Shown: positions 6,018-34,745, counted from the first letter of the stretch. The stretch is 42,847 nucleotides of DNA from a virus (IMGVR_UViG_3300048855_000185:1-42847), one strand, 5' to 3'. The notes: generated by a model not told the origin, from the letters alone. Made by a program: numbers and translations.

Positions 6018-8075
6018 TCAGCGCGCCTCCGCGTCGGCGCCGGGACCGGCGAGGTTGCGGAGATAGTCGGGGGTGGCTTCCTCGTCGGCCTGGGCCTCGA
6101 TCGCCTCTTCGAGATCGATCTGCTCGGGCTCGTCGTCCATGCCGAGCCCCTCTATTTGGATCAGCTCGGTGAGCGCCATGGCTCCGTCGTAGTGCCAGTC
6201 ATAGCCGTCGTCGCCGTATGCGACGCCCTCTTGGAGGAGGAAGGCGACGAGGCCTGCCTCGGCCATGCTGGCGGCGGCGCCCTCGGAAATCTCAAGATTT
6301 TCTTCGAGATTACCGGCGACCATCCCGAGGAATTCGGCGCGCGAGGGCAGGGCGTCGGGTTCGGGTTCCGGCGGTCTCGACCACGCCGTGTCGAGATCTT
6401 CGCCGGAGTGGATCGGAAGGCCGAGCGCATAGTTGTGGGCGATGCAGCTTAGGCGCCGCCGAGCCTCAAACGCCCAGGCGGCTGCGACCGTGGTGTCGCC
6501 GCGCCCGTCGATCATCTCTGGAAACTTCGATCCCTCCGTGAGCACCAGGGTAAAGGGGCCGGCAATGCCATAACTGGCGTAGGTCGCCGAAAAAGCCGCA
6601 GTGAAAGCCGCGTGGTCGAGCCCTGGCGCGGCTCGCTCCAGCTCGCGAACGGCGGTGAAAAAGGCTCTGCCTTCGTCGCTGCTATCCCGAGCGACCATCG
6701 TCTCTTCCGCCGCTTTCTTCGCCGCGCGCCGTTCTTCTTCGGCGAGCTGCTTGGTCCTTCGGTCGAAATCCGCGGCTTGCTGACGAGCTTGCGCTTGCTC
6801 GGCTTCGCGGGCCTTCTCGATCAGGTCGGGCGCGGGCTCCGACCGGAAGGGTTCGTTTAGAGCCCAGGTGCCGTATTCGCCACGCACGTCAGCGGCGTCC
6901 CAGGTTGCGGCGATGCGGGCGGCTTCGGTTTCGCCGAGGACGCGCACGCGCAGGGAGTGCAGTGCGGCGGCGCGGGTCTTCTTGCCTTTGAAGCCGGGGA
7001 GTTGGGCTTCAAGGTTGTCGGCCGTAAATGGCCACTTCATGCACACCAAGTGGCGCGGGTCCGTCTTCCAGCCTTCGCAATGCGTAAGGAAATCACGCTG
7101 TAGCAGCGCCTGGATCGGTTCCCCTTCCTCCAATGCGCGGAAGCCAACGGCGATTGGCTTGGTGCTGTACCAGCAATTATCGAGGTTCTCGGGGAAGCGT
7201 TCACAAGCGTCCTGGATCTCGGCCATCGCCAGCAGTTCGGCTGGTGGCAGGGTCTTCGCCTTGTGGTCCCTCTCGCGCGCTCGGAGGTTCTGTACTTCGC
7301 GCCGGGCCTCTTTCAGCGACAGATGACCGTTGTCATCCTTGTCCAGCTCCAAGCGCACCTGAGTGATCGCTGGCAGCTCCAGCAGGTCCATGCGCTGTTC
7401 GACGTAGCGAACGGTCTTGCGAACGGCGTCGGCGATCGTCGCCTTGGCGTCCTTCAGTTCAAGCGACGGGTCTTCCGCCATGCGGGTGTCGATGATCCGC
7501 CTGAAGGCTCGCGCCTCTTCAAGCGGCGAAAGATCCGTGCGCTGGATGTTCTCGATGGTGGCGATCTCGAACGCCTGGGCGTCGGTCAGTTCACGATACA
7601 TCGCGGGGATAGTGGTCTTCTCGGCCTTTCGGCTCGCCCGCCAGCGGCGTTCGCCGGCCACGATCCGATAGCGCCCCTCGATCACGCCTTGGCGAATGAG
7701 GATCGGCTGAGTGACGCCCTTGTCGCGAATGGACGCGGCGAGGCCGTCCAGTTCTTCGTCATCGAAGATCACGCGCGGGTTGAGGGTCGGGTCCTGATCG
7801 ATCAGGTTGATGTCAAATTCACCGAAGCCGGGCGTGGTCGAGGCGCCGCCGTCCAGCTCGGCCAAGACCGCGACGCCATCGACGGTCAGCGCTGGCGGCG
7901 AACCGGGTTCGCGGGTGATCAAGCCAGCCTTTTCGAGCACGCTCAGATCGCGCGAAATGTTGTTCGACTTGCGGCCGCTGGCTTCGGCCAGGGCCTTGGC
8001 GCTGAGGTCGCCGCCGGCGTGGATAGCGCGCAGCAGCGGGGCGCTTGAGACGGCGATGGGGGTGAGGATGGTCAA
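6018..8075 (-). CDS. ParB/RepB/Spo0J-family protein with N-terminal HTH and long C-terminal extension
   Basis: 685 aa; NPR, LAASIRDKGVTQPILIR, IVAGERRWRAS (GxxRxxA CTP-binding patch), ENIQRTDLSPLEEA; N-terminal HTH (AKALAEASGRKSNNISRDLSVLEKAGLI). TTG start overlaps the upstream stop. Confidence 0.88.
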   Translation of the reverse strand: MTILTPIAVSSAPLLRAIHAGGDLSAKALAEASGRKSNNISRDLSVLEKAGLITREPGSPPALTVDGVAVLAELDGGASTTPGFGEFDINLIDQDPTLNPRVIFDDEELDGLAASIRDKGVTQPILIRQGVIEGRYRIVAGERRWRASRKAEKTTIPAMYRELTDAQAFEIATIENIQRTDLSPLEEARAFRRIIDTRMAEDPSLELKDAKATIADAVRKTVRYVEQRMDLLELPAITQVRLELDKDDNGHLSLKEARREVQNLRARERDHKAKTLPPAELLAMAEIQDACERFPENLDNCWYSTKPIAVGFRALEEGEPIQALLQRDFLTHCEGWKTDPRHLVCMKWPFTADNLEAQLPGFKGKKTRAAALHSLRVRVLGETEAARIAATWDAADVRGEYGTWALNEPFRSEPAPDLIEKAREAEQAQARQQAADFDRRTKQLAEEERRAAKKAAEETMVARDSSDEGRAFFTAVRELERAAPGLDHAAFTAAFSATYASYGIAGPFTLVLTEGSKFPEMIDGRGDTTVAAAWAFEARRRLSCIAHNYALGLPIHSGEDLDTAWSRPPEPEPDALPSRAEFLGMVAGNLEENLEISEGAAASMAEAGLVAFLLQEGVAYGDDGYDWHYDGAMALTELIQIEGLGMDDEPEQIDLEEAIEAQADEEATPDYLRNLAGPGADAEAR
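7898..7912. repeat. Dispersed palindrome copy 1, GCGAACCGGGTTCGC (inside the parB-like gene)
   Basis: Matches CGAAC-N3-GTTCG. Confidence 0.8.
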
Positions 8076-8206
8076 GAGGCGGCTCCGGTGAAGACCGCCT
8101 CGGCCATGGCTTGCACGATGGCGAGCAGGGCGAAGGCGGCGAGGATGTAGCGGGCGCGGTTGCGCGCGCCGCGTCGGGCGAAGAGGGGTGGCGGGGGCGG
8201 TCTCAC
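8072..8206 (-). CDS. 44-aa single-TM protein (not in the ORF track)
   Basis: GTG start; MRPPPPPLFARRGARNRARYILAAFALLAIVQAMAEAVFTGAAS; GTGA and TTGA overlaps at both ends fill the gap exactly. Confidence 0.55.
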   Translation of the reverse strand: MRPPPPPLFARRGARNRARYILAAFALLAIVQAMAEAVFTGAAS

Positions 8207-8529
8207 CGGCTGTAGGCGGCGACGGCTGCGAGCAGGGCTTCGGCCGCGTGGGGCTCGGAGGCGACCACGCCGACGTAGCTGCGCTCGCCCGATTGGCTGT
8301 CGAGCGCCTCGACCTTGAGCGCTGAGAAGGTGTCGAAGCCGGGATAGACGCAGGTGATCGGCGTCAGGGTGAGCGGCTGGCCCTTGGCGTCGCAGGCGAG
8401 GCGCTCGGCGACGTCGGAGATCTCCGCGAAGCCGATCGGGCGTTCCCAGCCCGGCGCGATCAGGGTCCAGGGCGCCGGCTTGCGCAGTTGGTGCGGGTCT
8501 ATGGGCGCGGCGGCGAGGGCGGGGCTCAT
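8203..8529 (-). CDS. Hypothetical phage protein
   Basis: MSPALAAAPIDPHQLRKPAPW...; ATGA overlap with the upstream gene. Confidence 0.6.
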   Translation of the reverse strand: MSPALAAAPIDPHQLRKPAPWTLIAPGWERPIGFAEISDVAERLACDAKGQPLTLTPITCVYPGFDTFSALKVEALDSQSGERSYVGVVASEPHAAEALLAAVAAYSR

Positions 8530-8915
8530 AGCGCCGCCTTCACGATGTAGGCCACGCAGCCGGCGGCGGCGCCGATGCAGCCCGCGACCCAATGGGTCGG
8601 TCCAGCGCCCGCGATGATGAAATGCAGGCGCGACCACCAGGGGGCGGCGTCAAAGGCCTTGCGACGGGTGAAGGCGCGCTCCGCGGCTTCCTGGCGGTTG
8701 GCCGCTTCCTCGGTCGAGCGGTGCTGATTGAGGACGGCGGCGCGCAGAGCACGCTCGCTGCGATAACGGAGGACGTTGCCGGCGGCGTCGATGACGGCGA
8801 CCGCTTCGCCAAGATCGCGGCACCAGGCCACGGCTTCGGCGGGGAAGGGGATAATCACCGCCGAGCGAGGGCTCGGGGCGGCTGCATCGGCGAACGGGGT
8901 TCGTGGTGCGTCCAT
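8526..8915 (-). CDS. First gene of the leftward early operon; hypothetical with a C-terminal hydrophobic segment
   Basis: 129 aa; GAGGT RBS upstream of the ATG. Confidence 0.6.
   Translation of the reverse strand: MDAPRTPFADAAAPSPRSAVIIPFPAEAVAWCRDLGEAVAVIDAAGNVLRYRSERALRAAVLNQHRSTEEAANRQEAAERAFTRRKAFDAAPWWSRLHFIIAGAGPTHWVAGCIGAAAGCVAYIVKAAL
8890..8904. repeat. Dispersed palindrome copy 2, GCGAACGGGGTTCGT (start of the first leftward gene)
   Basis: Matches CGAAC-N3-GTTCG. Confidence 0.7.
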
Positions 8916-9000
8916 GTCGGACCTCGCCCCGGCGGTCCTAAATCCGTCCTTCCAAGACTGATCTGCGGACGCCCATCGTCACGTTGGCCGCCGGGTTGGC

Positions 9001-9033
9001 AACTTAGGCAACGATCCGTTGCCTTTGTCAACG
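9001..9033 (-). promoter_or_regulatory. Leftward early promoter/operator (PL/OL-like)
   Basis: Minus-strand TTGACA (9031-9026) followed by the palindrome AGGCAACG-ATC-CGTTGCCT (9006-9024). Confidence 0.65.
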
Positions 9034-9091
9034 ACACGAGGAAACAGCGTGTGTCGTTTTCTCGAATCGAGAGGGCGTGGTGTCCGGCGAT

Positions 9092-9763
9092 CTAGCCGCC
9101 GCGCAGTGCGATCTTGTAGACACCCTTGACCGTCGACATGGGGAACGAGAGGCTTTCTTCGGGGAAGCGAATGCGGACCGTCAGCACGCCTTGGGCGGTC
9201 GAGACGTATTCACTGACGTGAAGGTCGCCGTTGGTCAGCTCGACAACGCAACCGTCGCCGCGCCTGGGCCATTGGCTAGTGTCGTAAATGACGAGTTGGC
9301 CGCTTTCGACGTAGCCGGTCATGGTGTCTCCGGCCACCCGTAGGCTGCGAGCGTCAGGGCCAAACATCCAGCTTAGGTCAACAGACTGTTCGGCCTCATC
9401 CCCGCTGTAAACCTGGGGGCCTGAGGGGCCGGCTCGCACGCGGCCTATGACGGGCAGCTCATACACATTACCGCCGGCGTGGGCGGGGCGAAGGGGATTG
9501 GAGTCGCCCCCAGTGAGGCGATCGCGCTCGCGCAGAAGGTCGTCGCGTGTGACGCCGATCGCCTTGGCGAGATCTTCCTGGATGTCCTCGCGCAGGACCA
9601 CGTCCCGACCAGCTTCATAGTTGCCCCAGGCCTGGCGAGAGACGCCGATGGCCTTGGCCGCTGTGGTTTGCTTGATCCCCGCCCTGGAGCGCAAAGACTT
9701 AAGCGCCTGACCGAGGGCTACAGCCGAGGGAGGCGGGGTTTTGTTGCGGCTTTGTGTGTCCAT
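9092..9763 (-). CDS. CI-like repressor (XRE HTH plus S24-like C-terminal domain)
   Basis: HTH QTTAAKAIGVSRQAWGNYEAG; LPVIGRVRAGP cleavage-loop motif; LRVAGDTM; divergent from a cro-like gene. Start could be further upstream. Confidence 0.88.
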   Translation of the reverse strand: MDTQSRNKTPPPSAVALGQALKSLRSRAGIKQTTAAKAIGVSRQAWGNYEAGRDVVLREDIQEDLAKAIGVTRDDLLRERDRLTGGDSNPLRPAHAGGNVYELPVIGRVRAGPSGPQVYSGDEAEQSVDLSWMFGPDARSLRVAGDTMTGYVESGQLVIYDTSQWPRRGDGCVVELTNGDLHVSEYVSTAQGVLTVRIRFPEESLSFPMSTVKGVYKIALRGG

Positions 9764-9830
9764 CCGTGGATGGAACACCCGCATGTGTGTTGCCGCGACC
9801 GCCAGCATGGTTGCCTCATAGGCCACGCAG

Positions 9831-9866
9831 CGTTGACAAAAGCAACAAATCATTGGCGCTCAAGAA
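9831..9866 (+). promoter_or_regulatory. Rightward early promoter/operator (PR/OR-like)
   Basis: CGTTGACAAAAGCAACAAATCATTG closely matches the leftward CGTTGACAAAGGCAACGGATCGTTG. Confidence 0.65.
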
Positions 9867-9891
9867 GTCCGACCAAAACGGACCGCGCTTC

Positions 9892-10185
9892 ATGCCACTA
9901 TCGCCCCAAGCCCCTAAGGCGCTCGTAAGGCCCGCCCTCGCCAAGTTCATCTGGGAACGTGGCCTCGACTATCGGGCTGCGGGCGAAGCGCTGGGCCGGA
10001 CGGGTGAGTGGGTCCGGCTGGTCTGTCTGCCGTTCGACGATCCTCGCAGGAGGGTGCCCGAGACCGAGGACATGCGGCGGATATTCGATTGGTCGGGGGG
10101 GCAAATCGCCCCTTCCGACTTCTATCCCGAAGAGCTTCGCGGCCCTTCGGGTGGGATCGCCGCCTTTAGCGGTGTTGAGCCATGA
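9892..10185 (+). CDS. Cro-like transcriptional regulator
   Basis: 97 aa, divergent from cI; HTH-like YRAAGEALGRTGEWVR and C-terminal RIFDWSGGQIAPSDFY. Confidence 0.75.
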   Translation: MPLSPQAPKALVRPALAKFIWERGLDYRAAGEALGRTGEWVRLVCLPFDDPRRRVPETEDMRRIFDWSGGQIAPSDFYPEELRGPSGGIAAFSGVEP

Positions 10186-10459
10186 CTGGCTGGGGCTCGC
10201 CAGCGAGGCCTTTCCCGCGCGGGCATTCCCGGCAGGCGGCGCACAGGTGTGTCAGAGCTCGGAGCGCTCCAAATCGCGCTCCCACCGGGTCGGTCGCTTT
10301 GGCGACGCTGAGAACGTCACGGTTGGCCCGGGCTGCGGCGTGTCCGCTCGCATCCATTATCTCGGCACACACCGCGCGCAGGTGCGGCTCGCCGCTCGCG
10401 GCCGCGATGATCGAGATGAGCGCGACGCGCAGTTCCGCTTCTGTTGCGTGCATCGGCAT
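10166..10459 (-). CDS. Possible small antisense-oriented gene
   Basis: 97-aa protein-like ORF convergent on cro, preceded by an AT-rich intergenic region. Confidence 0.35.
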   Translation of the reverse strand: MPMHATEAELRVALISIIAAASGEPHLRAVCAEIMDASGHAAARANRDVLSVAKATDPVGARFGALRALTHLCAACRECPRGKGLAGEPQPVMAQHR

Positions 10460-10748
10460 CAGCCCGGCACCTTCGGGTAATCAGATATGAATTGGCGATC
10501 TGAAGGCAGTCCGCAGCGGTCGGTAAATGAATTAACAGTCGCCACTGACAATAGAGATGGTAGGGCGAGCCGCAATTCGGCTCTGCCCAAATTTACTGTA
10601 AGCACAAATACTACTCCCCAGCCGATAAACAATCGGCAGACGCTATTGTTATTGGCCCCCTACGACCAAGCTTCACTAAAACCAAGACTGTTATCGGTGT
10701 CTCCACACAACTGCTCGTTGGGGTGCGGCAGTTTGACACACCATGACA

Positions 10749-10765
10749 GGCGAACCCGGTTCGCC
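10749..10765. repeat. Dispersed palindrome copy 3, GGCGAACCCGGTTCGCC (intergenic)
   Basis: 17-bp palindrome 10 nt downstream of a TTGACA (10733-10738). Confidence 0.8.
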
Positions 10766-10803
10766 AGCGACGCGAGCCCCCGCCGGTCACTGGCGGTCGC
10801 GCC

Positions 10804-11169
10804 ATGACATCAGCGCGCCAAAGGGAAGCCGCGAGGGTCTGGGGCGAGCTGATCGAGCAGGCGCGCCGGCATGGCGAGGCCGTCGAGGCGGGCGCCGTGA
10901 TCGAGAAGTTCGTCGCGGCCTCGTTCGTGCGGACCGTCAGCCAAGCCGGCAAGTGCCCGTTCCCGCTTCAGCACGTCAGCGCCCAGGCGGCGGGCAAGGC
11001 CTTCCTCGGGATCGCCCAGGCGTTCGTGACCGCCGCCCGCGAGGAGGATCGCCTCGCCATCGGCCGGTTCATGGTCGCCGGCTCGCGCTGTGTCGACGCC
11101 ATCCTGACCGCCCATGCTCACGCCCAGGCGGACGTGTGGCGGCGCAATTTCCCAGACGAGGAGCTGTGA
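10804..11169 (+). CDS. Hypothetical phage protein
   Basis: 121 aa; TGATG-coupled to the MazG-like gene. Confidence 0.65.
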   Translation: MTSARQREAARVWGELIEQARRHGEAVEAGAVIEKFVAASFVRTVSQAGKCPFPLQHVSAQAAGKAFLGIAQAFVTAAREEDRLAIGRFMVAGSRCVDAILTAHAHAQADVWRRNFPDEEL

Positions 11170-11603
11170 TGAAGCCTGTGTTTAAGAGGACCCTGCGCGC
11201 GGCAAACGTCGCCCGACAGGCAGAGTGGCCCGGTCACGACAAGATCGACCTGAGCTATCGCGGCAATGAAATGGCGGGCGAGGTCGGCGAGGCCTGCAAC
11301 GTCATCAAGAAATTGGAGCGCGAGCGGCTCGGAGTGAAGGGCTCGCGCGCCACCGTCGAGCAGCTCGCCGACGAGCTGGCGGATGTGGTGATTTGCGCTG
11401 ACCTAGCCGCGCTCCACATGGGGATCGACCTGGAAGCGGCGATCTCGCGAAAGTTCAACGCGACCTCCGTTGCCCAAGGCCTTGCCACTCGTCTCACCCG
11501 AAGCGCCACGGCGAGCGAATGCGACCTCTCAGTGATCAACGGAGCGACCAGCCGGTGCGAGCGCTGCGGCTCTGCTCGGCATGAACCGTGCGGTGAGGCG
11601 TGA
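11169..11603 (+). CDS. MazG-like nucleotide pyrophosphohydrolase
   Basis: EMAGEVGEACNVIKK...LADELADVVI...IDLEAAISRKFN (ExxE...ExxD motif). Confidence 0.85.
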   Translation: MKPVFKRTLRAANVARQAEWPGHDKIDLSYRGNEMAGEVGEACNVIKKLERERLGVKGSRATVEQLADELADVVICADLAALHMGIDLEAAISRKFNATSVAQGLATRLTRSATASECDLSVINGATSRCERCGSARHEPCGEA

Positions 11604-12094
11604 GCGCCTTTCACCTTAGGGGGCCTGCGATGGCCACGAGGGGGATGACCCTCTCTGACCGTGCTCGCATTCAGCAGCTTGAAGCCCAGGTCGCGGATCT
11701 GACTGAAGAGCTGGAGGCATGGCGCGGCTTTGACGGCGACGCCGAGCGGCGAGCCAAGAACGACGAGCGCGAGGCCCGGGTCCGCACCAGGATCATGCGG
11801 CTTAAGCCGGCCCATCGTCCCTGCATGTACGGGGGCGTGGTCGTTCGGCTTCTCCTGCACTTCATAGACCATCCCGACCGCCTGCACCGCCGCGAGACGC
11901 TGCTCGATGTTGTCGCGGGCGAGGGCTCCGAGAGCTTGCCCAAGGTGGTCGACGTGCGGGTGTCGCACGCGCGCGACGTGGTCGCCTTCGCCGGCTTTGA
12001 CCGGACCATGATCGAGACGCATTGGGGCCGGGGCTATCGCATTACCGCCGCGAACGCCGAGCTGCTCAAGGCCGCTCTGGATGGCGCGCGATGA
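11600..12094 (+). CDS. OmpR/PhoB-type winged-helix protein without receiver domain (CtrA-like C-terminus)
   Basis: RETLLDVV...PKVVDVRVSHAR...IETHWGRGYRI, preceded by a coiled-coil N-terminus. Confidence 0.75.
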   Translation: MSAFHLRGPAMATRGMTLSDRARIQQLEAQVADLTEELEAWRGFDGDAERRAKNDEREARVRTRIMRLKPAHRPCMYGGVVVRLLLHFIDHPDRLHRRETLLDVVAGEGSESLPKVVDVRVSHARDVVAFAGFDRTMIETHWGRGYRITAANAELLKAALDGAR

Positions 12095-12840
12095 GGGCGT
12101 CGGGGGCTGGCTCGGTCATGGCCGATCGTGCGCGGGGCGAAGTCGAGACCGACGACGAACTGCGCGCCCTCTATCGCAAGCTCGAGTTCTTCCCGACGCC
12201 GCCTTGGGCCGGGCGTGCGGGTGGCGAGCTGATCCAGCGCATCGACCCAGGCGCATGGTCGGCGTGGGAGCCGGCCTGCGGGCAGGGCCATATGGCTCAC
12301 GGGCTCGGCGACTACTTCGAGCGGGTTCTCGCCACCGACATCCATGCGCATGGGGCGTTTCAGCACGGCGACCCCGTGGACTTCCTGTCCGACGATGCTG
12401 ACCGCTTCGGCGCCTGCGATTGGATCGTCACCAATCCGCCGTTCGTGCCGGCCGCCCAGTTCGTAGAGGTGGGGTTGCGCCGCGCCGCTCGCGGGGTCGC
12501 GATCCTGGCGCGCGGGAGCTGGTACGAGACGATCGGGCGATATGGCCTGTTCTACGGCGAGACGCGCCTGACGCTCTATGCGCCGTTCTTCGAGCGCGTT
12601 GCCATGAAGCTGGGCGAGTGGGACCCGGACGCTTCGACCGCGACCGCCTACGCCTGGTTCATCTTCATGCACCCGCGCGTGCTGCCTGACTGGCTGCGCG
12701 ATCTGCGGCGCGTCGATCCGCTTCTCGCCGTCACCACGGGCATAGCGCCCGGCACGCGCGAGCGTCTGACCAGGCCCGATGACGTGCGCCGGTTCGGCGT
12801 CGTGGCCGCAGCCCCATTGTTTGAAGGGATGGATCTATGA
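12091..12840 (+). CDS. Orphan amino (N6-A/N4-C) DNA methyltransferase
   Basis: FFPTPPW, motif I WEPACGQGHM, motif IV IVTNPPF. Confidence 0.82.
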   Translation: MRASGAGSVMADRARGEVETDDELRALYRKLEFFPTPPWAGRAGGELIQRIDPGAWSAWEPACGQGHMAHGLGDYFERVLATDIHAHGAFQHGDPVDFLSDDADRFGACDWIVTNPPFVPAAQFVEVGLRRAARGVAILARGSWYETIGRYGLFYGETRLTLYAPFFERVAMKLGEWDPDASTATAYAWFIFMHPRVLPDWLRDLRRVDPLLAVTTGIAPGTRERLTRPDDVRRFGVVAAAPLFEGMDL

Positions 12841-13255: not shown

Positions 13256-13497
13256 CCCGGCCTCCTCGGCAAAACGACCTGTTCGGCGCTGCGCCCAAGG
13301 GCGACCGCGACTGTACGCCGGTGTCGATCCGCATGGCTGTGATCGATCAGACGGCCCTCGGGCTGTTCCTCGCCATCGAGGGGCGCAAGGGCACGGCCAA
13401 GTGGGCGCCGCGAGCCCAGGTCAAGGCCGGGGAAGGCCGCGACGAAAACCTATTCACCATGGCGCGCTGGGTGGCGCGTGAGAGGGGCTGGCTGTGA
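13252..13497 (+). CDS. Hypothetical phage protein
   Basis: GTG start; ...KWAPRAQV...FTMARWVARERGWL; GTGA overlaps at both ends. Confidence 0.6.
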   Translation: MTRPPRQNDLFGAAPKGDRDCTPVSIRMAVIDQTALGLFLAIEGRKGTAKWAPRAQVKAGEGRDENLFTMARWVARERGWL

Positions 13498-14525
13498 GTA
13501 ACAAGGCTCTGGACTGGGCATGGGACGCCGACGTCCCTAGCGGTCCTCTTTTCGTGCTGGTGGTGCTGGGGGACCACGCGAGCGATCACTCGGGCGAGGA
13601 TTGGACCTGTTTCCCCTCGGTCGAGCGCATTCGGACGCGCACGCGGTTCAGTCGCGCCACGGTCGAGCGACACCTCGACACCTTGGTCGCGGAGGGTTGG
13701 ATCAGCCGCAAACGGCGTGTCAGACCCGACGGAAGGAAGGGCGTTTATGATTACGTCCTGCATCGCGAGGAAGGGGTTAGGGCGCGCCTGAAGGCCGAGC
13801 GCTCGGGCCATCCAGAGGCCCAAAACGAGGCCGAGCCATGCAGCAATTTGCAGCATGGTCCATGCGTCAGCCTGCAGCATGGTCCATGCGTCAATTTGGA
13901 CGAAACCATGCTGCAAATTGAGCAAAAACCATGCCTCAATTTGCAGCATCAAGAACCCTTAGTAGAACCCTCACTGAACCCACAGACGGGCGTGGGCGCT
14001 GGCGCGGGCGAGCCTGGGGATGACGGGTTCGATCTGGCGTTCGCCGAGTTCCCCGATATCGGCCGTCAGCGGTCCAGCCCGCCGGCGGCGCGAGCGACCT
14101 GGGCGCTGTGGTGCGGTGAGTTCGATCCCACCCAGCTTCTTGCCGCCATCCGCCGCTACAAGGCCGAAGACCCCGACGTGCGGCGCGGCGTCTGCCTGGC
14201 CTTCGAGCGCTGGTTCTCGACCGAACGCTTCCGCCATTGGCTTGGCGAGGGGAGCCCTGTCGAGGCTGCGGCCACGACGCCACGAACCGGGTTCGCTGGG
14301 CCTGCAGAGTTGAGGGCGCTGATCGTTCGGGCGGTGTCGAATGGCGAGGCCTTCGCCCGGTCGTATTTCGACCCTGCGGCTTGGGACGAAGCGACCAACA
14401 CACTGACGCCGGCGACCAGCATGGCCGCCCAGAGGCTGGGCGAGGTCCGGCGCGTGTTTCGAGATTACGGGGCGCAGATCGGCGCCCCGGTTGCGGCCAT
14501 TCGGGCTGCTGGGGGGAAGGCATGA
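13494..14525 (+). CDS. Phage replication initiator (N-terminal HTH, lambda O-like organisation)
   Basis: MSNKALDWAW...VLVVLGDHA...CFPSVERIRTRTRFSRATVERHLDTLVAEGWI; internal iteron repeats. Confidence 0.82.
   Translation: MSNKALDWAWDADVPSGPLFVLVVLGDHASDHSGEDWTCFPSVERIRTRTRFSRATVERHLDTLVAEGWISRKRRVRPDGRKGVYDYVLHREEGVRARLKAERSGHPEAQNEAEPCSNLQHGPCVSLQHGPCVNLDETMLQIEQKPCLNLQHQEPLVEPSLNPQTGVGAGAGEPGDDGFDLAFAEFPDIGRQRSSPPAARATWALWCGEFDPTQLLAAIRRYKAEDPDVRRGVCLAFERWFSTERFRHWLGEGSPVEAAATTPRTGFAGPAELRALIVRAVSNGEAFARSYFDPAAWDEATNTLTPATSMAAQRLGEVRRVFRDYGAQIGAPVAAIRAAGGKA
13836..13951. repeat. Iteron array; putative phage replication origin
   Basis: Repeated CCATGCnnCAATTTGCAGCATGG-like units at ~13836, 13860, 13884 and 13929, plus an inverted unit CCATGCTGCAAATTG at ~13906. 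Confidence 0.8.
14282..14296. repeat. Dispersed palindrome copy 4, ACGAACCGGGTTCGC (inside the replication gene)
   Basis: Matches CGAAC-N3-GTTCG. Confidence 0.75.
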
Positions 14526-15121: not shown

Positions 15122-15122
15122 C
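15115..15122 (+). promoter_or_regulatory. ops-like element GCGGTAGC
   Basis: Matches the core of the RfaH ops site (GGCGGTAGnnTG). Lies at the end of the NusG paralog gene, just before a terminator hairpin. Confidence 0.5.
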
Positions 15123-15146
15123 CGTTCAGCCCCCCAGTTCTTCATG

Positions 15147-22259: not shown

Positions 22260-22274
22260 GCGAACCCGGTTCGC
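22260..22274. repeat. Dispersed palindrome copy 5, GCGAACCCGGTTCGC (intergenic)
   Basis: Matches CGAAC-N3-GTTCG. Confidence 0.8.
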
Positions 22275-22312
22275 CGGTCCCCCGAAAATCTAACCTGAAG
22301 GACACCGTCATC

Positions 22313-24447: not shown

Positions 24448-24458
24448 CCGGAACTTCC

Positions 24459-28500: not shown

Positions 28501-29918
28501 ACCTGACCCACGTCTTCCTGTCGAGCGGACAGGAACTGCGGACGGCGGTCGGCGATCCGGCGGCGGCGGCCGAGGCTGCGCTCAAGGCGGTGCTCGCCGG
28601 CGCGACGTTCACGGACGAAGCGCAAAAGACCCTCGTCACCTCCATGCTGGCAGCCGGCAAAGGGTTCGATGAGATCGCCACCGGTCTCCAAAGCTTCGCC
28701 CAGGCGCAGCTCATTCCGAAGACGATCTCCGACCAGATCCTGAAGCTGATGGACCCGGCGGCGTTCGACACCAAGTCGCTGGTCGGGGATCAGCAGGCCC
28801 GCCGCGCCGAGATCCAGAAGCAACTCGACACTGGCCTGCTCACTGCACAGCAGTTCGCCGCGATTGCCGAACAGCTCACTCAGCTCGAAGGGCTGGAATT
28901 GGGCCAGGTGGTCGCGCAGTACGCCGGCCAGCTCAGCCAAGCGGCCGATCGCGAGGCGGCTGTCGATAAGGCCCGCTCGGCTTTGCAGGCGGCCTATCAA
29001 AAGACCGCCACCCCGCTTCAGGCGGCGGCCAGCAAGCTCCGCTCGATCGAGTCGGATCTGCGTTCCTACGGCGAACGGTTGCGCGGTGACGCCCTGAGTT
29101 TCGCTTCGCCAGGTGATCGGTTCGCGGCGGCTGAGAGCGAGTTCGCGCGCGTCTCCGCCCTGGCCCAACTCGGCAACGACGCGGCCTTTGCGGACCTTGA
29201 ACGGGTCGGCGACGCCTATGTGCAAGCCTCGCTCGACTTCCAACCGGAGCTGCTGGATCACCTGAAGGTCATCGGCGCCGTCCTCAACGCGGTCGAGGGT
29301 GCTAAGGGCACGGCGGGTCGCCAAGCGAGCATCGCCGAGCAGCAGCTCGCCGCGCTCGACGCCCAGGTCGCCGGCCAGCTTGAAACCACTGAGGCGGTGC
29401 TGTCGGTCGGCGAGGCCATGGCGAACCTCGCCAAGGCGCTTGAGGGCAGGGGGAGCGGACAGCAGCTCGGGCTCAACCCTGCCTCCAACTCGGCGCTGGC
29501 GGCGGCCACCGGCTTCAAGGGCGACTTCGGCGCCGGCGGCTGGCAGGCCTGGATCATCCAACAGGATGAGCAGACCAAGGCCATCGCGCGCCACATCCTC
29601 GGAGCCTTCGGTCAGACTGAGCGGATTGTCGGCTTCGCCACCGGCGGCAGCTTCAAGGTCGGCGGCTCGGGCGGGATCGACAGCCAGCTCATGCAGTTCC
29701 GCGCGACGCCGGGCGAGATGGTCCAGGTCTCGCGACCAGGCAAGGGCGACGACACCGCGAACGCGGTTCGCCAGCTCCGCTCTGAACTCGTGCCGGCCGT
29801 GCAGTCGCTGGCGCTCTCGAACAGTCGGATCGAGAGCCACTTCCAACGCGCCGAACTCGAAGGCTGGCCGGTGCGGGGCGAGCTGCCCGGTTCTCCCGTC
29901 CTGACGAAGGTGGCCTGA
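25596..29918 (+). CDS. Tail tape measure protein (TP901-like core)
   Basis: ~1440 aa, Ala/Gly-rich; IGALRVVLGLDSAAF, TVFSASEAADAM, VVGHSYVPDMV, GFATGG. Confidence 0.95.
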   Translation: MSGPSTIGALRVVLGLDSAAFTNGLKDAQAQLRKAGRQFEQIGSQLQGIGQSMTVGVTAPLLAFGVGALKASADFESAMIKVGISTKAAGAEMSALEASAREIGKSTVFSASEAADAMDMLAKTGLGVAEILGGAAKATVDLAAAAGSELDPAASAISDSMQQFKLTAAQLPGVVNQITGAVNESKLDFQDFTLAIGQAGGVAAGLGVSFEDFNAVLAGTSSLFSSGSDAGTSFKTFLTTLVPKTKGAAEAMDAYGLTFFDANGAMKDMADIAEMLRTQLGGLSEEAKNEALTKIFGTDAMRTAIGLMDQGADGIESLKVKIAETDAAAQSAQRMTGFAGQMEQLKGSLEELGIAIGKSGLLDFMTKLVTGLSGFIDKVSATNPELLKLATIAGAVAAAIGPLVMIAGAVVGSFGTLLGLLTAPVTLPIVGAIAGVAVAFAVFGDTIIPALQDFGQRVAEILGPKIQPLFEAVVGLVGTLSAAFAAAFGQGAPGAVALQYYGEQIARVFGAAVDLITGAVNVITNVLKAIGALLRGDFAGAWTYVGEAIFAALKGIVNAVSTLLPEVVQWVKATYEGVRTWFGTMLPRVFEGVKSKVKEVGDAFFDLYDRVVGHSYVPDMVEGVASWMAKLDAGMVKPAKGATKAATEAFETLRSDVASIMEGLLTDSERTIRDLNAKMLELRKMVAEGRMRDGEFSAAVDRMFEVEVKPSKTKPVGTGEDITRPWEGANEAWEEAVEEREKVWTDSLGRMGTSFKGMFQEWISTGKVNWKRFLFDMADNWEGIMGALKKSGGLGGLFGGEGGLGSILGKIGGSLGGGLGKAWSGITGALGSLGSGIGGVVGKIGTALGGMTGGIGSAIGGLASSIGGALGGVATSMGAALAPLLGVLGPVGIIAGLGSMLLKSKPSNNAALATFDGAGYSVSGNKRTDETTSAASAAADAVAAGQDALRAFGISLGTTVRQIDIGTRDLTHVFLSSGQELRTAVGDPAAAAEAALKAVLAGATFTDEAQKTLVTSMLAAGKGFDEIATGLQSFAQAQLIPKTISDQILKLMDPAAFDTKSLVGDQQARRAEIQKQLDTGLLTAQQFAAIAEQLTQLEGLELGQVVAQYAGQLSQAADREAAVDKARSALQAAYQKTATPLQAAASKLRSIESDLRSYGERLRGDALSFASPGDRFAAAESEFARVSALAQLGNDAAFADLERVGDAYVQASLDFQPELLDHLKVIGAVLNAVEGAKGTAGRQASIAEQQLAALDAQVAGQLETTEAVLSVGEAMANLAKALEGRGSGQQLGLNPASNSALAAATGFKGDFGAGGWQAWIIQQDEQTKAIARHILGAFGQTERIVGFATGGSFKVGGSGGIDSQLMQFRATPGEMVQVSRPGKGDDTANAVRQLRSELVPAVQSLALSNSRIESHFQRAELEGWPVRGELPGSPVLTKVA
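29757..29771. repeat. Dispersed palindrome copy 6, GCGAACGCGGTTCGC (3' end of the tape measure gene)
   Basis: Matches CGAAC-N3-GTTCG. Confidence 0.75.
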
Positions 29919-31606
29919 TGAAGTTCATTGAACCCCTGACGATCGATGACACGGCGGCGTTTAGCCGTGCGTCGATCGCCAGCCACTACACGCGCCTCGG
30001 CGGCCTGGCCTTCGCGCCCGTCAACGAGCCCAGGCTGAACTATCCGCGTGAGTATCGCAGCTACGCACCCTCCGGCTGGCTTGCCGGGCCTTCGCTGCTG
30101 CTGCCCACGGCGCCCTTGCCGGGTGTGGCGATCACGCCGGCGGCGGCTCCCGAGTTCCTCGCGGAGCCTGCCGCGACGAACCTGATGGTGCAAAGTCAGG
30201 ATCTGACCGGCTGGACCGCGACGGAAGTCACGATCGCCGCCAACAACAGCGTCGCGCCCGACGGGACCGCGACCGCCGATAAGATACTCCCGAGCGCCGT
30301 GGACACCGCTGATCACCGGATCTCGCGCGCCGCTTCGGCAGCGGTTGCCGCCGGCGCCACAGTCGGGTGCTCGATCTTCCTGCGCGCCGCTGGGGCCGCC
30401 TTCGCGGTGCTTCGCTGCGCTCCGGCCGGCGAGGCTGAAGGCTTCGAAATGACCGTGGATCTAGCCAACGCCGACATTCCGGTGGCGGGCGGATTTGGTG
30501 CGGGCTCGACCTTAGTCGATGCTCGCCTCATCACCCTTTCCGCCGGTTGGTTCCGGCTTGAGCTGGAAGGCTCCGTCGCCGGCGTCACCGACTATCAAGT
30601 CTTCCTCTGGGTCGGGGACGGGGTGGCGACGTTCGCCGGCGACGGCCTGGCAGGGATCGAGGCGTGGGGCGCTCAGATCGAGGTGGGCGGATGCAGCTCG
30701 TACATCGCCACGACCGCAGCGGCGGTGACGCGAGCGGCGGACGTCGGCACGCCGCTGCTGGTGTCAAGCGTTCCCGAGGATGAGCCGGTCTACAACGCGG
30801 CGACCACCTACGCGAAAGACGCGATTGCGCGCGGAACCGGCGTGGACGCCCACAAGGTGTTCCTCTCGATTCAGGCCGGAAATGTCGGGAAGGCGCTGAC
30901 GGACAAGGCCTGGTGGATCGAGGCCGGTCTGACCAATCGCTGGCGGATGTTCGACGACGGGGTGGGGTCGCAGACTGCTGCGCCCAACGCCATCACGACC
31001 GTTCTAAACCCGCAGGGGCGCGTGAACGCCGCCGCGCTCATGCAGATCGAGGCGGCGAGCGTGCGCGTGACGATGACCGACCAGGTCGATGGCGTGGTGT
31101 TCGATGAAACGATCAGTCTTGTCGACAACTCAGGGATCAACACGCCCTGGCAATGGTTCTTCGAGCCGATCCGCCGCAAGACCTATCAGGTGATTGAGGG
31201 GCTCCCGCCCTACGCCGGCGCTCAGTTGAGTGTCACGCTCATGGACGAAGGGTTCTCGCCTCGGGCCGGCGCCTTGGTTGTGGGGGTCTTCCACTATTTG
31301 GGCCGGACCCAGTGGAACCCCGAGCTGTCGATCATCGACGCCAGCATCAAGCAGCGCGACGTCTTCAACAACGTGACGCTTCAGGAGCGGGCCTACAGCC
31401 GGCGCGGCAACTTCGCCCTCTGGGTCGAGCCCGGCTTCGTCGACCGCTTCTACGACCTGATGGCGCAGTACCGGGCCAAGCTCCTCGTGTGGGTCGCGTC
31501 CGAACAATACGCCTCCATGGTGATCTTCGGGTTCTACCGAGACTTCAGGATCGCCGTTCCTTACCCGACCTTGTCGTTGGGCAATCTTCAGCTTGAGGCG
31601 GCCTAA
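29918..31606 (+). CDS. Distal tail-like protein with an inserted carbohydrate-binding/head-spike-fiber-like domain
   Basis: Follows the tape measure gene. Insert EPAATNL...WGAQIE...SSYIATTAAAVTRAAD; C-terminal WIEAGLTNRWRMFD...IFGFYRDF. Confidence 0.65.
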   Translation: MKFIEPLTIDDTAAFSRASIASHYTRLGGLAFAPVNEPRLNYPREYRSYAPSGWLAGPSLLLPTAPLPGVAITPAAAPEFLAEPAATNLMVQSQDLTGWTATEVTIAANNSVAPDGTATADKILPSAVDTADHRISRAASAAVAAGATVGCSIFLRAAGAAFAVLRCAPAGEAEGFEMTVDLANADIPVAGGFGAGSTLVDARLITLSAGWFRLELEGSVAGVTDYQVFLWVGDGVATFAGDGLAGIEAWGAQIEVGGCSSYIATTAAAVTRAADVGTPLLVSSVPEDEPVYNAATTYAKDAIARGTGVDAHKVFLSIQAGNVGKALTDKAWWIEAGLTNRWRMFDDGVGSQTAAPNAITTVLNPQGRVNAAALMQIEAASVRVTMTDQVDGVVFDETISLVDNSGINTPWQWFFEPIRRKTYQVIEGLPPYAGAQLSVTLMDEGFSPRAGALVVGVFHYLGRTQWNPELSIIDASIKQRDVFNNVTLQERAYSRRGNFALWVEPGFVDRFYDLMAQYRAKLLVWVASEQYASMVIFGFYRDFRIAVPYPTLSLGNLQLEAA

Positions 31607-32526
31607 TGCCCGTTCCGACGATTCCTCCGCTGACGCCTTGGCCGTCGCGCAATGACCGGCCCGAAGTGTTCAACGCCAAGGTCGACGCCTTCCTGCCCTC
31701 GCTGAACCCGTGGGCACTGATCGTCAACGCCGCTGGGGCGGCCATGCAGGCGCTGTCCGATGGCGTCACTACTGCCGCCGGCCAGGTGATGCAGGCGCTG
31801 AATTCTGTGACCGCGCTGCGCAACCAAACCGAGGCTTTCGCGATCTCGGCCGTCAATGCACCCGGCACAAGCGCGACCAGCATTACGCCGCTAACGCTCA
31901 CCACGGGCCTCAAGGCCCTGGCGATCCAGACCGGCAAGGCACTTCGCGAGGGGCAGACGGTCTCGATCGCCGTCAGGGGCGACGGCACAAAGCGGATGGT
32001 GGGTCCCATCCAGAGCTATGACCCTGCGACCGGCGCGCTGGTCGTGGATATCGAAAGCGTCCCAGGCGGTGCGGGCCCCTATTCGAACTGGATGGTCGCC
32101 CTTTCGGCGCCGGGCTCGATCCCGGTCGCGGCCGTGGTTGACCTGTGGGCCGGCGTCGACAACACCAAGGCGGTCACCGCCGCCACGATCAAGTCGGCCA
32201 ACGAGTATCGCGCGCGGCCGAACGCCTCGGCCCTTGCCTGGGACGTCTTGGCGCTCGGCTATAAGATCTCGACGGTGCTCAGCTCGGGAAGCCACACAGA
32301 GGCCCTGCCAAGCGGCTTGAAGGTCGGGGACATCATCACCGCTCAATACCAGCAGCCCGCCGGCGGCGGCGCTGCAACCGTGGTCTTTCCGGCCAACTTC
32401 AAGTTCGGACAGCTTGTCGGCGCTCCGGTGCTGAACGGGACCGCAAACGCGATCAGCGTCATGCGTGGTGAAGTCCTGGCGATCTCGCCGGCCATCATCA
32501 TCGACGCTCAGTTCAAGAACCTCTGA
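31606..32526 (+). CDS. Tail fiber-related protein
   Basis: 306 aa in the tail-tip region; PSRNDRPEVFNAKVDAF, SYDPATGALVVD, KAVTAA. Confidence 0.6.
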   Translation: MPVPTIPPLTPWPSRNDRPEVFNAKVDAFLPSLNPWALIVNAAGAAMQALSDGVTTAAGQVMQALNSVTALRNQTEAFAISAVNAPGTSATSITPLTLTTGLKALAIQTGKALREGQTVSIAVRGDGTKRMVGPIQSYDPATGALVVDIESVPGGAGPYSNWMVALSAPGSIPVAAVVDLWAGVDNTKAVTAATIKSANEYRARPNASALAWDVLALGYKISTVLSSGSHTEALPSGLKVGDIITAQYQQPAGGGAATVVFPANFKFGQLVGAPVLNGTANAISVMRGEVLAISPAIIIDAQFKNL

Positions 32527-33473
32527 TGTCCTTCATCTCGACGGCGATGCTGCTGGGGACCGCGTATCCTGCGCTCACCGTGGGCCTCTCCACGGCGACG
32601 GTCGCCGGCTCAAGCACCAGCTCGACCGTGACTTCTGGCTCCGTCACGGCGACCAAGACCGGCGGCTCGGGCCAGGTCGTCACGGCCTGGGGCTATGTAA
32701 GCGGCAACGCCAGCATTGTCGCCACCTCGCCAAATTCCGCGGCGACTTCGTTCCAGGCCACCGGCCTCGGCGCGGGCGAAAGCCGCTCAGCCGTGTGGCG
32801 GGCCACGGTGAGAGACGCGATCACCGGCGAGACGCTCTCCACGGGGAATGTCACGATCAATCTTCGCCGGGACTATCCGTCGCTGTCGATCAGCGGACCC
32901 GGCAACGTTGACGGCACGCAGGTCTCATCCTCAACCGTCACCGTGTCGGGAAGCACCAGCGTTTCAGCGTCGGGCGGGGTCCCGCCTTACTCCTACTCCT
33001 GGAGCTATAGTGGCGACTTCAGCATGTCGGGCAGCGGCGCCTCGCGCAGCTTCTCCCGTGCGCTCGCCCCGCAGGGGGGCGTCCTGGGCTCAGCGACCGT
33101 CACGGTCACCGATGCGATCGGGCAATCGGAGTCCGCAAGCTGCTCGGTCATGCTGCGGAACTTGGGAACGGCGCCCTCGCCGCTCAGCGCTTACGCCAGC
33201 CCGGCCTCGGTTTCGGGCTACACGCTGAGCAACACCTGCAACACGGGGTCGACGTCAATTATCGTTTCGGGGGGCGTGGGTCCCTACAGCTACGCCTGGT
33301 CACGTGCTGGCGGCGTCGGCTCTGGTGGCGGCGGGGCTGGGGGCAGCTTTAGCTACAGCACGGCCGAGGATGGGGATTTCTACGGGACGTTCCAGTGCCT
33401 CGTGACCGACTCGCGAGGCGTGCAAACGGCGTGCTGGGTTTCCGCCAGCTTCTCATTCGGCAACCTCAACTAG
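32526..33473 (+). CDS. Ser/Thr/Gly-rich protein with ~3 Ig-like repeats (tail adhesin)
   Basis: Repeated SGGVPPYSYSWS / SGGVGPYSYAWS...VTD motifs. Confidence 0.65.
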   Translation: MSFISTAMLLGTAYPALTVGLSTATVAGSSTSSTVTSGSVTATKTGGSGQVVTAWGYVSGNASIVATSPNSAATSFQATGLGAGESRSAVWRATVRDAITGETLSTGNVTINLRRDYPSLSISGPGNVDGTQVSSSTVTVSGSTSVSASGGVPPYSYSWSYSGDFSMSGSGASRSFSRALAPQGGVLGSATVTVTDAIGQSESASCSVMLRNLGTAPSPLSAYASPASVSGYTLSNTCNTGSTSIIVSGGVGPYSYAWSRAGGVGSGGGGAGGSFSYSTAEDGDFYGTFQCLVTDSRGVQTACWVSASFSFGNLN

Positions 33474-33482
33474 AGACGACAC

Positions 33483-34226
33483 ATGCCCGACTATGCACGG
33501 AAGATCGACGGCGCTTGGGTGCTCATCAACGGCGCCTTCACCGTCGAAAGCGGCGGCTCTAGCGAGATCTTGGTTGACCCTGATCTGCCCGGCGGTCCGA
33601 CCAAGGTCGTGACCTATGACATGCCCTATCCGCATGGGTGGGTCGAACTGGCGACGCCGTCTCAGCGCGCGGCGCTAGGCATCAAGCCGATCGCGGCGCC
33701 GGACTCGCCCGCTCCGGGCCGCGCTGTGGGTGAGCTAGAGATCTTCGATAACGCTGGTTCACCTAAATACCGATACGTCACCGCCGAGATCCCGCTCGCC
33801 GCCCGCCTGGACGCTCTGCTGCGCGAGATCGACACGAAGCGTGACGAGTTGCAGCAGGCCGACTTTGAATACGACTTTGGCGATCTGCTCGCGATCGACG
33901 ACTTCGACAACGAACTGCCGGCCGGCATCCGTCGTTTGCAGATGCGTCCAGGGGATCGGGCGAACTGGGGCGATCTCCAAGCGCAGGCGATGGTCGCTGG
34001 GATGGCGAGCCAACCCGACACGCTGCTGCCCATGCGCGCCGAGGACAACTTCAACGTCCAGACGACGGCCGGCGACGTCCTGGTCGTGACCTCGGCGATG
34101 TTCGCGCGGAACGCCGGCTATCTCTTCAAGGGCGGGGTGCTGAAGTCCCGTGCCCGGCAAGCTGTGGCGGCTGATGACGCGGAAGCCTTCGACCTCATTG
34201 ACATCGAGGCGGGCTGGGAGGGCTGA
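33483..34226 (+). CDS. Tail fiber assembly-like protein (DUF4376-like C-terminus)
   Basis: IDTKRD...LQMR..DRANW...MRAEDN...IDIEAGW. Confidence 0.6.
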   Translation: MPDYARKIDGAWVLINGAFTVESGGSSEILVDPDLPGGPTKVVTYDMPYPHGWVELATPSQRAALGIKPIAAPDSPAPGRAVGELEIFDNAGSPKYRYVTAEIPLAARLDALLREIDTKRDELQQADFEYDFGDLLAIDDFDNELPAGIRRLQMRPGDRANWGDLQAQAMVAGMASQPDTLLPMRAEDNFNVQTTAGDVLVVTSAMFARNAGYLFKGGVLKSRARQAVAADDAEAFDLIDIEAGWEG

Positions 34227-34275
34227 GGCCCGCCGCTCGTTCGTCTTTCAAACCTAGACCGGAGCGCCCTGCGCC

Positions 34276-34707
34276 ATGTCGGAATCATTTGTCCCACTCA
34301 CGCCAGGTACTGGCGCGTACAAAGTCGCCACGTATCGTTTCACCTTCGGCGCCGAAGACCGGGAGATCTCCCGCTTCGCGCTGAACGACGCGACCGGAGC
34401 CGAGCTGAAGGGCCAAAAGCCGCGTGAGGATAGCCTGCCCGTGGCGTTCTCGCCGGAGGACGTGGCTGCGATCCTCGAAAACCAGAGCGGCCGGGGCTGG
34501 GTCGCCTTGCCGGCATCGGGCGCGCCTGCACTCGCCGTGCCCGTGCGGGCGGTGTTGATCTACGGCCCCGGCAACCTGGTGCTCGAACTCGAAGACGGAA
34601 CCCTCAACACGGGCGAGCCGATCCCGGTGACCGCCGGCATGCAGTTTGCGATGCGCGCCATCCGCAAGGGTGCGACCTGCACCGCAGGCGTCATCGGCCT
34701 GAAATAA
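34276..34707 (+). CDS. Putative head spike base protein (RcGTA Rcc01079-like C-terminus)
   Basis: C-terminal RAVLIYGPGNLVLELEDG...VTAGMQFAMRAIRKGATCTAGVIGL pattern, recognised from memory. Confidence 0.5.
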   Translation: MSESFVPLTPGTGAYKVATYRFTFGAEDREISRFALNDATGAELKGQKPREDSLPVAFSPEDVAAILENQSGRGWVALPASGAPALAVPVRAVLIYGPGNLVLELEDGTLNTGEPIPVTAGMQFAMRAIRKGATCTAGVIGLK

Positions 34708-34710
34708 TCC

Positions 34711-34745
34711 CGCGAACCCGGTTCGCGAGGCGAACGGCGTTCGCC
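34711..34745. repeat. Dispersed palindrome copies 7 and 8 in tandem (intergenic)
   Basis: CGCGAACCCGGTTCGCG (34711-34727) and GGCGAACGGCGTTCGCC (34729-34745). Confidence 0.85.

Follow-up and report, generated by a model that had tools for sequence, protein, structure and literature searches.

What binds a short palindrome that recurs, with fixed arms, across most of a temperate phage genome, and what might such a dispersed set of sites do? The question is raised by IMGVR_UViG_3300048855_000185:1-42847, a virus record of 42,847 bases (hereafter the window, meaning the whole stretch of DNA analysed), which reads as a lambdoid, Caulobacteraceae-type prophage. The prophage has eight copies of CGAAC-N3-GTTCG and a gene, parB, for a long orphan ParB protein. 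We report here that the prophage's own ParB probably loads at these palindromes, and that a family of such proteins and sites is found in a subset of Caulobacteraceae prophages.

Eight palindromes in the prophage

The eight exact copies of CGAAC-N3-GTTCG start at 7899, 8891, 10751, 14283, 22261, 29758, 34713 and 34731; an earlier note on this DNA had reported all eight, with coordinates one to two bases early. Dinucleotide shuffles contain a mean of 0.12 copies and at most two, with 0 of 100 reaching eight, so the rarity noted before holds, although the expectation is 0.12 and not the ~0.04 first estimated. The palindromes are thus a real feature of the window and not a product of chance. No copy is present in the host flank (1-1860), as had been claimed, one-mismatch copies are absent from the window, and every GAAC-N3-GTTC in it is a full CGAAC-N3-GTTCG site. 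The observation of fixed arms with varying centres is also borne out, but the three central bases (CGG, GGG, CCG, CGG, CCG, GCG, CCG and GGC, in order) are always G or C, and the site is therefore more aptly described as a palindrome of 13-15 bp whose 6-bp arms surround one central G/C.

Four copies lie within genes and four are intergenic (10751, 22261, 34713 and 34731), including the tandem pair and the parB copy that the note had described. Site 1 (7899..7911) has a C-S-G centre (S being G or C) and occupies parB codons 55-59, which encode REPGS in the wing of the N-terminal winged helix. Site 2 (8891..8903), with centre GGG and one non-consensus inner base, is at the 5' end of the open reading frame (ORF) 8526-8915, and site 3 (10751..10763, C-S-G) is 41 bp before ORF 10804-11169 in the rightward early genes. 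Site 4 (14283..14295, C-S-G) lies in the O-like replication initiator gene (13494-14525), site 5 (22261..22273, C-S-G) is 12 bp past the stop of the head-tail adaptor gene, and site 6 (29758..29770), with centre GCG and one non-consensus inner base, is in the tape measure gene. Site 7 (34713..34725, C-S-G) follows the stop of ORF 34276-34707 by 5 bp and is in tandem with site 8 (34731..34743, G-S-C), the two being 18 bp apart. A C-rich stretch and GAAAATCT come within ~25 bases after sites 5 and 8 alike and precede a gene start (22261-22298 and 34731-34768), perhaps as a shared upstream signal.

Association of the sites with a family of orphan ParB proteins

In the 301 Caulobacteraceae genomes searched, motif density on host chromosomes is at a low, background level, with most genomes having 0-4 sites. 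Where sites are numerous they are typically packed into prophages: all nine CGAAC-SSS-GTTCG sites of the 3.4-Mb genome G306 fall within 38 kb and all 11 of G033 within 51 kb, each stretch including a ParB gene; 21 of 25 in G198 lie in two tandem prophages with one ParB each, and nine of the 15 N3 sites in the 4-Mb genome G001 lie in 33 kb. A ParB of the same family as the window's is encoded in 25 of the 301 genomes, 24 recognized with a profile of the N-terminal winged helix plus G272, in which that domain is missing. Seven or more sites are present in 16 of these 25 genomes versus four of the 276 without the protein (Fisher p 6e-17, uncorrected for kinship; the 276 include the unpublished genomes G289 and G035, which enter into no other result). 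The sites of those four (G013, G016, G139 and G255) are mostly scattered singly, on separate contigs or far apart in G139 and G255 and with at most 2-3 per contig in G013 and G016, although G016 has three within 2 kb; four further genomes with six sites are likewise mostly of the scattered kind. Among the nine family genomes with fewer than seven sites, four have variant arms (G024, G097, G180 and G204), and in four (G084, G109, G199 and G284) the element is on a short or cut contig or was read in part; the other, G110, is considered below.

A blind comparison gives a similar picture. Among 80 records returned for terminase, and chosen by terminase alone, 38 are longer than 30 kb; six of these have 6-11 sites and 32 have 0-1. 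The six site-rich records encode the family ParB whole in three cases and cut at the record edge in one, and in the other two its position is placed 0.8 and 0.5 kb past the edge by matching site positions to G159 and G090, respectively. None of the 32 site-poor phages encodes the family ParB, and the nine that encode other ParBs include eight with long ones. ParB elements contain 143 exact copies in 810 kb and control phages one in 653 kb, and parB is the only window gene present in all 21 elements compared, most of which were picked through ParB and five through site clusters. One-mismatch copies are also commoner in ParB elements than in controls (59 in 810 kb and 23 in 653 kb), and selection against near-sites is not seen.

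The copy within parB adds a further line of evidence, in that the REPGS codons form a perfect site in five of six parB genes, versus ~0.005 expected from codon usage, the six genes representing two clades and not independent events. Scans of viral contigs with a single protein or a generic motif returned mostly ordinary ParBs, and 135 such loci contain four sites in 2.09 Mb, three of them in L026, a family member with a different N-terminus; 11 winged-helix loci contain 25 sites in 163 kb, some of the loci in this comparison overlapping. No full-length relative was found in 50,697 GenBank phage records or 72,556 plasmids. Five genomes have two family prophages each (G159, G306, G090, G001 and G198), too few to show exclusion, and the site types differ between the two prophages in all but G198. 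The proposal that the sites belong to the prophage's orphan ParB is thus supported by low host density, co-occurrence and synonymous conservation, and on these patterns protein and palindrome very probably form a pair in which the one would bind the other directly.

Domain organization of the ParB protein

The window parB (6018..8075, leftward) lies on the minus strand in a leftward gene run between cI and the integrase gene, and encodes a 685-aa protein, P0001. Foldseek and structure matches are to ParB, Noc and KorB. Residues 83-180 have the ParB CTPase fold (PF02195, E 3e-27), which superimposes on KorB (8qa8) with Z 14.6 and a root-mean-square deviation (rmsd) of 1.8 over 94 aligned residues. 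A central DNA-binding domain of the helix-turn-helix (HTH) kind follows at ~181-265 and includes K255 and R258; the predicted model matches Spo0J over residues 104-271 (Z 13.0, rmsd 2.9, 149 aligned), and PF17762 is below cut-off in P0001 but above it in 13 of 38 relatives. The CTP-pocket residues G141, R144, N176 and R179 are present in all 46 family proteins, with R101 in 45, E175 in 44 and R146 in 43, and across the CTPase motifs (PR, GxxRxxA and ENxxR) residues are kept in 41-46 of the 46. By fold, by pocket motifs and by its central HTH with a downstream GHAR-type specificity helix, P0001 is a member of the ParB CTPase clamp family.

The remainder of the protein is less typical. Residues 1-78, the normal place of the ParA-binding peptide, form a MarR-like winged helix (Z about 10 in structure comparison of the predicted model), and a weak second winged-helix-like domain is present at ~270-365. 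Residues 416-465 form a long helix, and further C-terminal domains end in an acidic tail; the C-terminal half is modelled confidently, yet has no fold match at E ≤ 0.001 or Z ≥ 8 and gave no usable match in a protein atlas. No ParA was found in a scan of 67 ORFs of the window, and the ParA-binding motif (L/F/I)G(K/R)G(L/F/I) of PMC12704722 is absent from the N-termini of all 49 family proteins. A search of 49 regions for deviant Walker A motifs gave one credible ParA-like gene, in G110; two further matches, a primase-like ORF and a wrong-frame ORF, are not ParA.

Across the family the N-terminal winged helix is better conserved than the central HTH. In the G272 ParB a Lys/Ala-rich N-terminal tail replaces the winged helix and the element still has 10 sites, so that the sites do not depend on that domain. 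In two of 38 C-terminal halves a MucR/Ros domain is recognized (E about 1e-27; L165:7714-10896 in G109 and L415:2356-4788 in G001 C99), and these proteins are ParB clamps fused to an alphaproteobacterial silencer domain, MucR being described as a xenogeneic silencer of that group (PMC9410896). All of the added modules that are recognized (winged helix, basic tail and MucR/Ros) are DNA binders. Many family proteins finish in Ala-Ala, which we considered as a protease tag and set aside, as overlap with the ribosome site and start of the next gene could explain it.

Site types and residue 255

Two inner types are seen in the relatives, CGAAC-C-S-G-GTTCG and CGAAC-G-S-C-GTTCG, together with the rarer arms CGCAC, CGAGC and CAAAC. 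Sites could be typed in 39 of 49 regions, four of these having only two sites; the untyped regions are G126, whose centres are mixed; G037 and L294, in which the centre is relaxed; G110 and L266, which show no pattern; L088 and L032, which are broken or outside the family; and G199, G084 and L276, which have one or two sites and residues that fit the relationship described here. Residue 255 is Lys or Arg in 11 of the 14 C-S-G elements and Asp or Glu in none, whereas it is Asp or Glu in 19 of the 25 G-S-C elements and Lys or Arg in none. The mutual information between this column and inner type is 0.76 bit, compared with 0.39 for the next column and 0.43 for the best of 300 label shuffles; columns of the winged helix and the central HTH reach at most 0.23.

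K255 and R258 align with the G and R of GHAR in all eight chromosomal ParBs compared, the mapping being based on these and on the Spo0J structure alignment, as a pairwise solved-structure search misaligned the HTH. Their counterparts in Caulobacter ParB are the specificity-switch residue G201 and the residue R204. Two switches lead to Noc specificity, of which G201R is one, and its arginine makes contact with a guanine close to the centre (PMC7383237). KorB is likewise described as reading its 13-bp site beside the central pair via residues outside the HTH (PMC3597684). Lys or Arg on guanine, and Asp or Glu on cytosine, would be the chemistry expected. The covariation of residue and base points to the central DNA-binding domain of ParB as the reader of the site, and we predict that the protein reads its palindrome with this domain.

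A tree constructed without columns 254-257 has five site-type changes, and five contrasts when all branches are used. The clearest are L084, which lies in the window's clade and has the same HTH as the window but has E255 and G-S-C sites, and L260 (H255) beside G186 and G159 (K255). The CGAGC, CGCAC and CAAAC arms, for which there are too few independent cases, could not be traced to any residue.

Distribution of sites across phage genomes

Neighbouring sites are a median of 4.4 kb apart in the 28 elements that have at least six of them, gaps above 10 kb make up 3% of 222, and every coefficient of variation is below 0.7; pooled, the spacing is regular with p 1e-16, the elements being related to one another. 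Sites occur in genes in all three frames (152, or 60%) as well as outside them (102, or 40%).

Proposed role and alternatives

We suggest that ParB would bind the palindrome with its central DNA-binding domain, take up CTP, close as a clamp and slide outward, and by analogy with its relatives such sliding is probable. With sites every 4-5 kb, overlapping coats of clamps could cover the whole phage DNA without a ParA motor, and the extra DNA-binding arm at the usual position of the ParA peptide may bridge the coated DNA to itself or to the host chromosome. Expression from lambda PL offers an analogy for leftward early timing. As parB lies between cI and the integrase gene, it would by this analogy be made with the leftward early genes and act early after infection or induction. 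That a ParB clamp loaded at dispersed sites coats, organizes or tethers phage DNA is, taken as a whole, the explanation we consider best, at somewhat better than even chances. We lean moderately to a mainly structural role (compacting, holding or tethering phage DNA) over gene control, since the spacing ignores gene boundaries, there is no conserved co-repressor, and the added modules bind DNA.

Several observations weigh against this explanation. G110 (50 kb read) and L266 (13 kb) have a family ParB and no enriched palindrome; G110, the sole true exception among the family genomes with few sites, has one variant site and also a ParA-like gene (L403:900-1619) ~6 kb from its family ParB. The C-terminal dimer gate that a clamp needs was not identified in P0001. 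Independent contrasts for residue 255 on well-supported branches number three, none opposite (p = 0.25), G126 has K255 yet mixed centres (three C-S-G, three G-S-C and one other) and is a partial counter-example, and three C-S-G elements have Pro or Ser at this position. The window taken alone has spacing no more regular than random (p = 0.25). Sites are also in excess between genes (40% of sites, compared with ~23% non-coding DNA by a crude gene caller), and in 25 of 29 elements the parB start has one no more than 1.5 kb away, both of which fit a regulatory role.

Such a role, in which the same clamp slides from the same sites to promoters and represses with a partner as KorB does with KorA, or activates or counters silencing in the manner of BisD or VirB, is the main rival and a serious one, though we rate it a minority explanation. 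Besides the intergenic excess and the site near parB's own start, it draws on the match of site geometry to the KorB operator OB, 13 bp with a central G/C (PMC3597684, PMC11790492), on the regulatory activity described for the orphan ParBs of mobile elements, BisD (PMC12409273) and VirB (10.64898/2025.12.19.695565), and on the MucR fusion in two of 38 ParBs. It accords less well with the 60% of sites in coding sequence, many of them evenly spaced in head-tail regions; a partner gene common to all elements was not found, KorB without KorA is described as an ineffective repressor (PMC11790492), and the GC content of the phage is near that of the host flank, leaving little AT-rich DNA to be freed from silencing. 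The KorB-like system proposed in the earlier note stands as regards dispersed 13-bp sites and a KorB-type fold, while KorB-type repression fits less well because most sites are in genes, spacing is even and no conserved co-repressor is seen.

The note's other suggestion, of a parS-like segregation system, is disfavoured by the lack of a ParA and of a ParA-binding peptide and by the integrating nature of the phage. A conventional version would be a centromere as in prophage N15, whose centromere sites are dispersed over its genome, with sites and ParB segregating an extrachromosomal prophage by means of a ParA that the host or some other element supplies. The IR sites of N15 are four in number and separate (PMC7205306), their outer bases resemble those of the G007-type site, and a ParA-like gene is near the G110 ParB; nevertheless, with no ParA in the 67 window ORFs, one credible case in 49 regions and no ParA-binding motif in 49 of 49 N-termini, we regard this as improbable. 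The window has a serine integrase, a tRNA-Met boundary and a host flank and does not read as an extrachromosomal low-copy replicon, although the prophage may pass through a transient episomal state.

Binding by some other protein (CI, Cro, an OmpR-type winged-helix protein, a host factor such as LexA or, within ParB itself, the N-terminal winged helix) is slightly less probable still. The LexA Cheo box is GAAC-N4-GTTC, which the GAAC...GTTC palindrome recalls, the N-terminal winged helix is better conserved than the central HTH, and the central recognition helix varies widely among ParBs whose sites share the CGAAC arms. However, only 12 of the 29 elements have detectable homologues of CI and Cro, whose recognition helices differ among phages with the common site, and the OmpR-type protein was found in two of 29; the columns of the winged helix lack a covariation signal and G272 lacks the domain. 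A single host protein fails to explain different site types within one host (G159, G306, G090 and G001), and for LexA the spacer is wrong, there being eight copies with a spacer of 3 but with a spacer of 4 only one with 4-bp arms and none with 5-bp arms, and the motif is at background level on host DNA with no host-wide SOS distribution. Lastly, each palindrome can form a 5-7-bp stem and might act in RNA or single strands as a pause, processing or termination signal. This we think scarcely credible, as we do chance, and the co-occurrence of sites and ParB already largely refutes it. Folding z-scores for single sites are -1.65 to +0.54, arm sequence is fixed within a phage with no compensatory changes and a 3-nt loop, no terminator-like site was found in 7800-11000, and both the shuffles and the control phages given above speak against a random origin.

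A bolder version of the coating proposal, which we consider doubtful but worth stating, is a ParA-free inheritance device, in which the circle of an integrating phage, on entry or after excision, would be coated by clamps loaded every 4-5 kb. The winged helix, or the basic tail or MucR domain in relatives, would grip the host nucleoid, and the circle would be compacted, shielded and carried along until integration or replication. EBNA1 and LANA are viral chromosome tethers, and the device, if true, would be their bacterial counterpart; the code of Lys/Arg versus Asp/Glu would then let co-resident prophages keep separate sites.

Relationship to known systems

The nearest well-described relative is KorB-OB of RK2 (IncP-1), which has in common with the phage system a ParB CTPase fold, a 13-bp palindrome with a central G/C (PMC11790492, PMC3597684), several separate sites per mobile element and inner bases read by a helix outside the HTH. 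The phage system differs in having neither ParA/IncC nor a common KorA-like partner (a small divergent partner could be missed), in the 685-aa length of its protein with an N-terminal winged helix and long C-terminal domains, and in its evenly spaced sites, which are mostly in genes and have an unrelated arm sequence. SopB of N15 with IR1-IR4 is also a phage ParB with several separate palindromes, similar in their outer bases to those of some relatives here, but N15 is described as a plasmid prophage of linear form that has SopA and even-length sites of 16 bp (PMC7205306), whereas the present family has 6-14 odd-length sites, an integrase and no ParA. With neither ParA nor KorA found, we place the family in neither system.

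BisD of ICEclc (PMC12409273) and VirB of Shigella (10.64898/2025.12.19.695565) are described as CTP clamps of mobile DNA with roles beyond plain partition, and BisD resembles the phage protein further in its added C-terminal domain and in serving an integrated element of similar size. BisD, however, has two loading sites, from which it slides ~50 kb to promoters bound by BisC (PMC12409273), whereas the phage genomes are themselves tiled with loading sites and no partner resembling BisC was found. HerB/YfjB (ParB2) of F-like plasmids is, like P0001, a long (~650 aa) orphan ParB with novel C-terminal domains, and acts early after DNA entry (PMC13370423), as the phage protein may also do; it binds sites on the host chromosome, whereas those of the phage family are carried by the phage and are no commoner than background on host chromosomes. 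The ParB-parS/Noc-NBS switch offers a parallel to residue 255, K255 being at the G201/R186 position and an arginine reading the guanine opposite the inner cytosine, but the phage family also uses Asp or Glu with the reversed base pair, a combination that does not appear in the available text of PMC7383237.

Many short sites dispersed over a temperate phage genome are also characteristic of the mycobacteriophage stoperators. Stoperators are asymmetric and oriented and are bound by the immunity repressor, whereas the phage ParB sites are palindromic and do not track CI. The literature gave no account of this ParB family or of integrating phages tiled with its sites, in a search that covered subscription papers thinly and did not extend to the supplements of PMC12704722; the four exact site strings gave no match, and the pattern GAAC-N3-GTTC gave one, in the Corynebacterium biotin operon as described in PMC3398298.

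Genomic context of the prophage

The named close relatives are in Phenylobacterium and Caulobacter assemblies. From left to right the window contains two host-like genes and a tRNA-Met gene, a serine integrase, the leftward run that includes parB, and a CI-like repressor, followed by early genes that run rightward, an initiator of the O type with iterons, and genes for terminase, head, tail and lysis functions. The tRNA-Met gene (1860..1936, plus strand) marks the left prophage boundary and presumably the insertion site, and homologues of the host genes that flank it recur in the G109 and G024 regions. The serine integrase (1893..3521) is on the minus strand, as is parB, and its 3' end runs into tRNA-Met; the integrase reading frame terminates within this opposite-strand gene, the two together covering 1860-3521. 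Insertion at tRNA genes is less usual for serine than for tyrosine integrases, and homologues are present again in G109, G024, G198 and G204. No attR-like long repeat was found among the 20 repeat families listed for the window. The GC content is ~0.66 in the phage and 0.68-0.71 in the host flank.

The CI-like repressor (9092..9853, minus strand; HTH and S24 domains) is not a likely binder of the dispersed sites. A GCAAC-N5-GTTGC palindrome at 9008..9022, between cI and the leftward operon, is a candidate CI/Cro operator and is unrelated to the CGAAC-N3-GTTCG sites; the earlier note had placed operators of this sequence at the cI and cro promoters, and the sequence is indeed present, but as a single copy even when one mismatch is allowed. 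A scan of 7800-11000 for sigma-70 promoters gave no matches and is uninformative for this host. Iteron-like repeats of 24-36 bp at 13821-13952, within the replication initiator gene, are likely a replication origin. A DNA methyltransferase-like gene (12022-12840, phrog_799) is the most widely shared after parB, being present in 14 of 29 elements, and a stand-alone LigD-type ATP-dependent DNA ligase is encoded at 41452-42417, close to the right end of the record.

Other phage ParB groups and implications

Dispersed palindromes accompany phage ParBs of other groups also. Five records (L024, L031, L264, L041 and L069, from G349, G350, G351, G353 and G354) each have 4-7 dispersed 16-bp palindromes of the GTGCAGACGTCTGCAC type, with ParB ORFs of 630-770 aa that have no N-terminal winged helix and no ParA-like ORF in the flanks examined, and in L302 (G352), whose ParB has 630 aa and again lacks the winged helix, GAAACGTTTC occurs seven times within 27 kb; both motifs were initially chosen from the DNA flanking ParB in these same records. 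Other enriched palindromes are found beside ParBs in L061 and L281/L282, and G008 (L171-L173) has 23 copies of a GGCCG-N9-CGGCC palindrome unrelated to the CGAAC sites. No strongly enriched dispersed palindrome (best log10 p -5.5) is seen in terminase-picked phages that have other long ParBs (nine) or none (ten), and thus either not every long phage ParB has such sites or a search with 5-bp arms misses them.

Long orphan ParB genes are described as frequent in prophages and largely uncharacterized (PMC12704722). For one family of these, present in 25 of 301 Caulobacteraceae genomes, the present analysis provides probable DNA sites, a probable reading residue and a predicted one-residue specificity swap. 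We did not find the pairing of sites and ParB in integrating phages without ParA described before, and it extends the known designs of ParB systems. The natural variants of protein and site may be orthogonal, and would be useful for studies of specificity and for labelling DNA loci. With two other phage ParB groups alike in this respect, tiling of temperate phage genomes with clamp-loading sites may be a general strategy.

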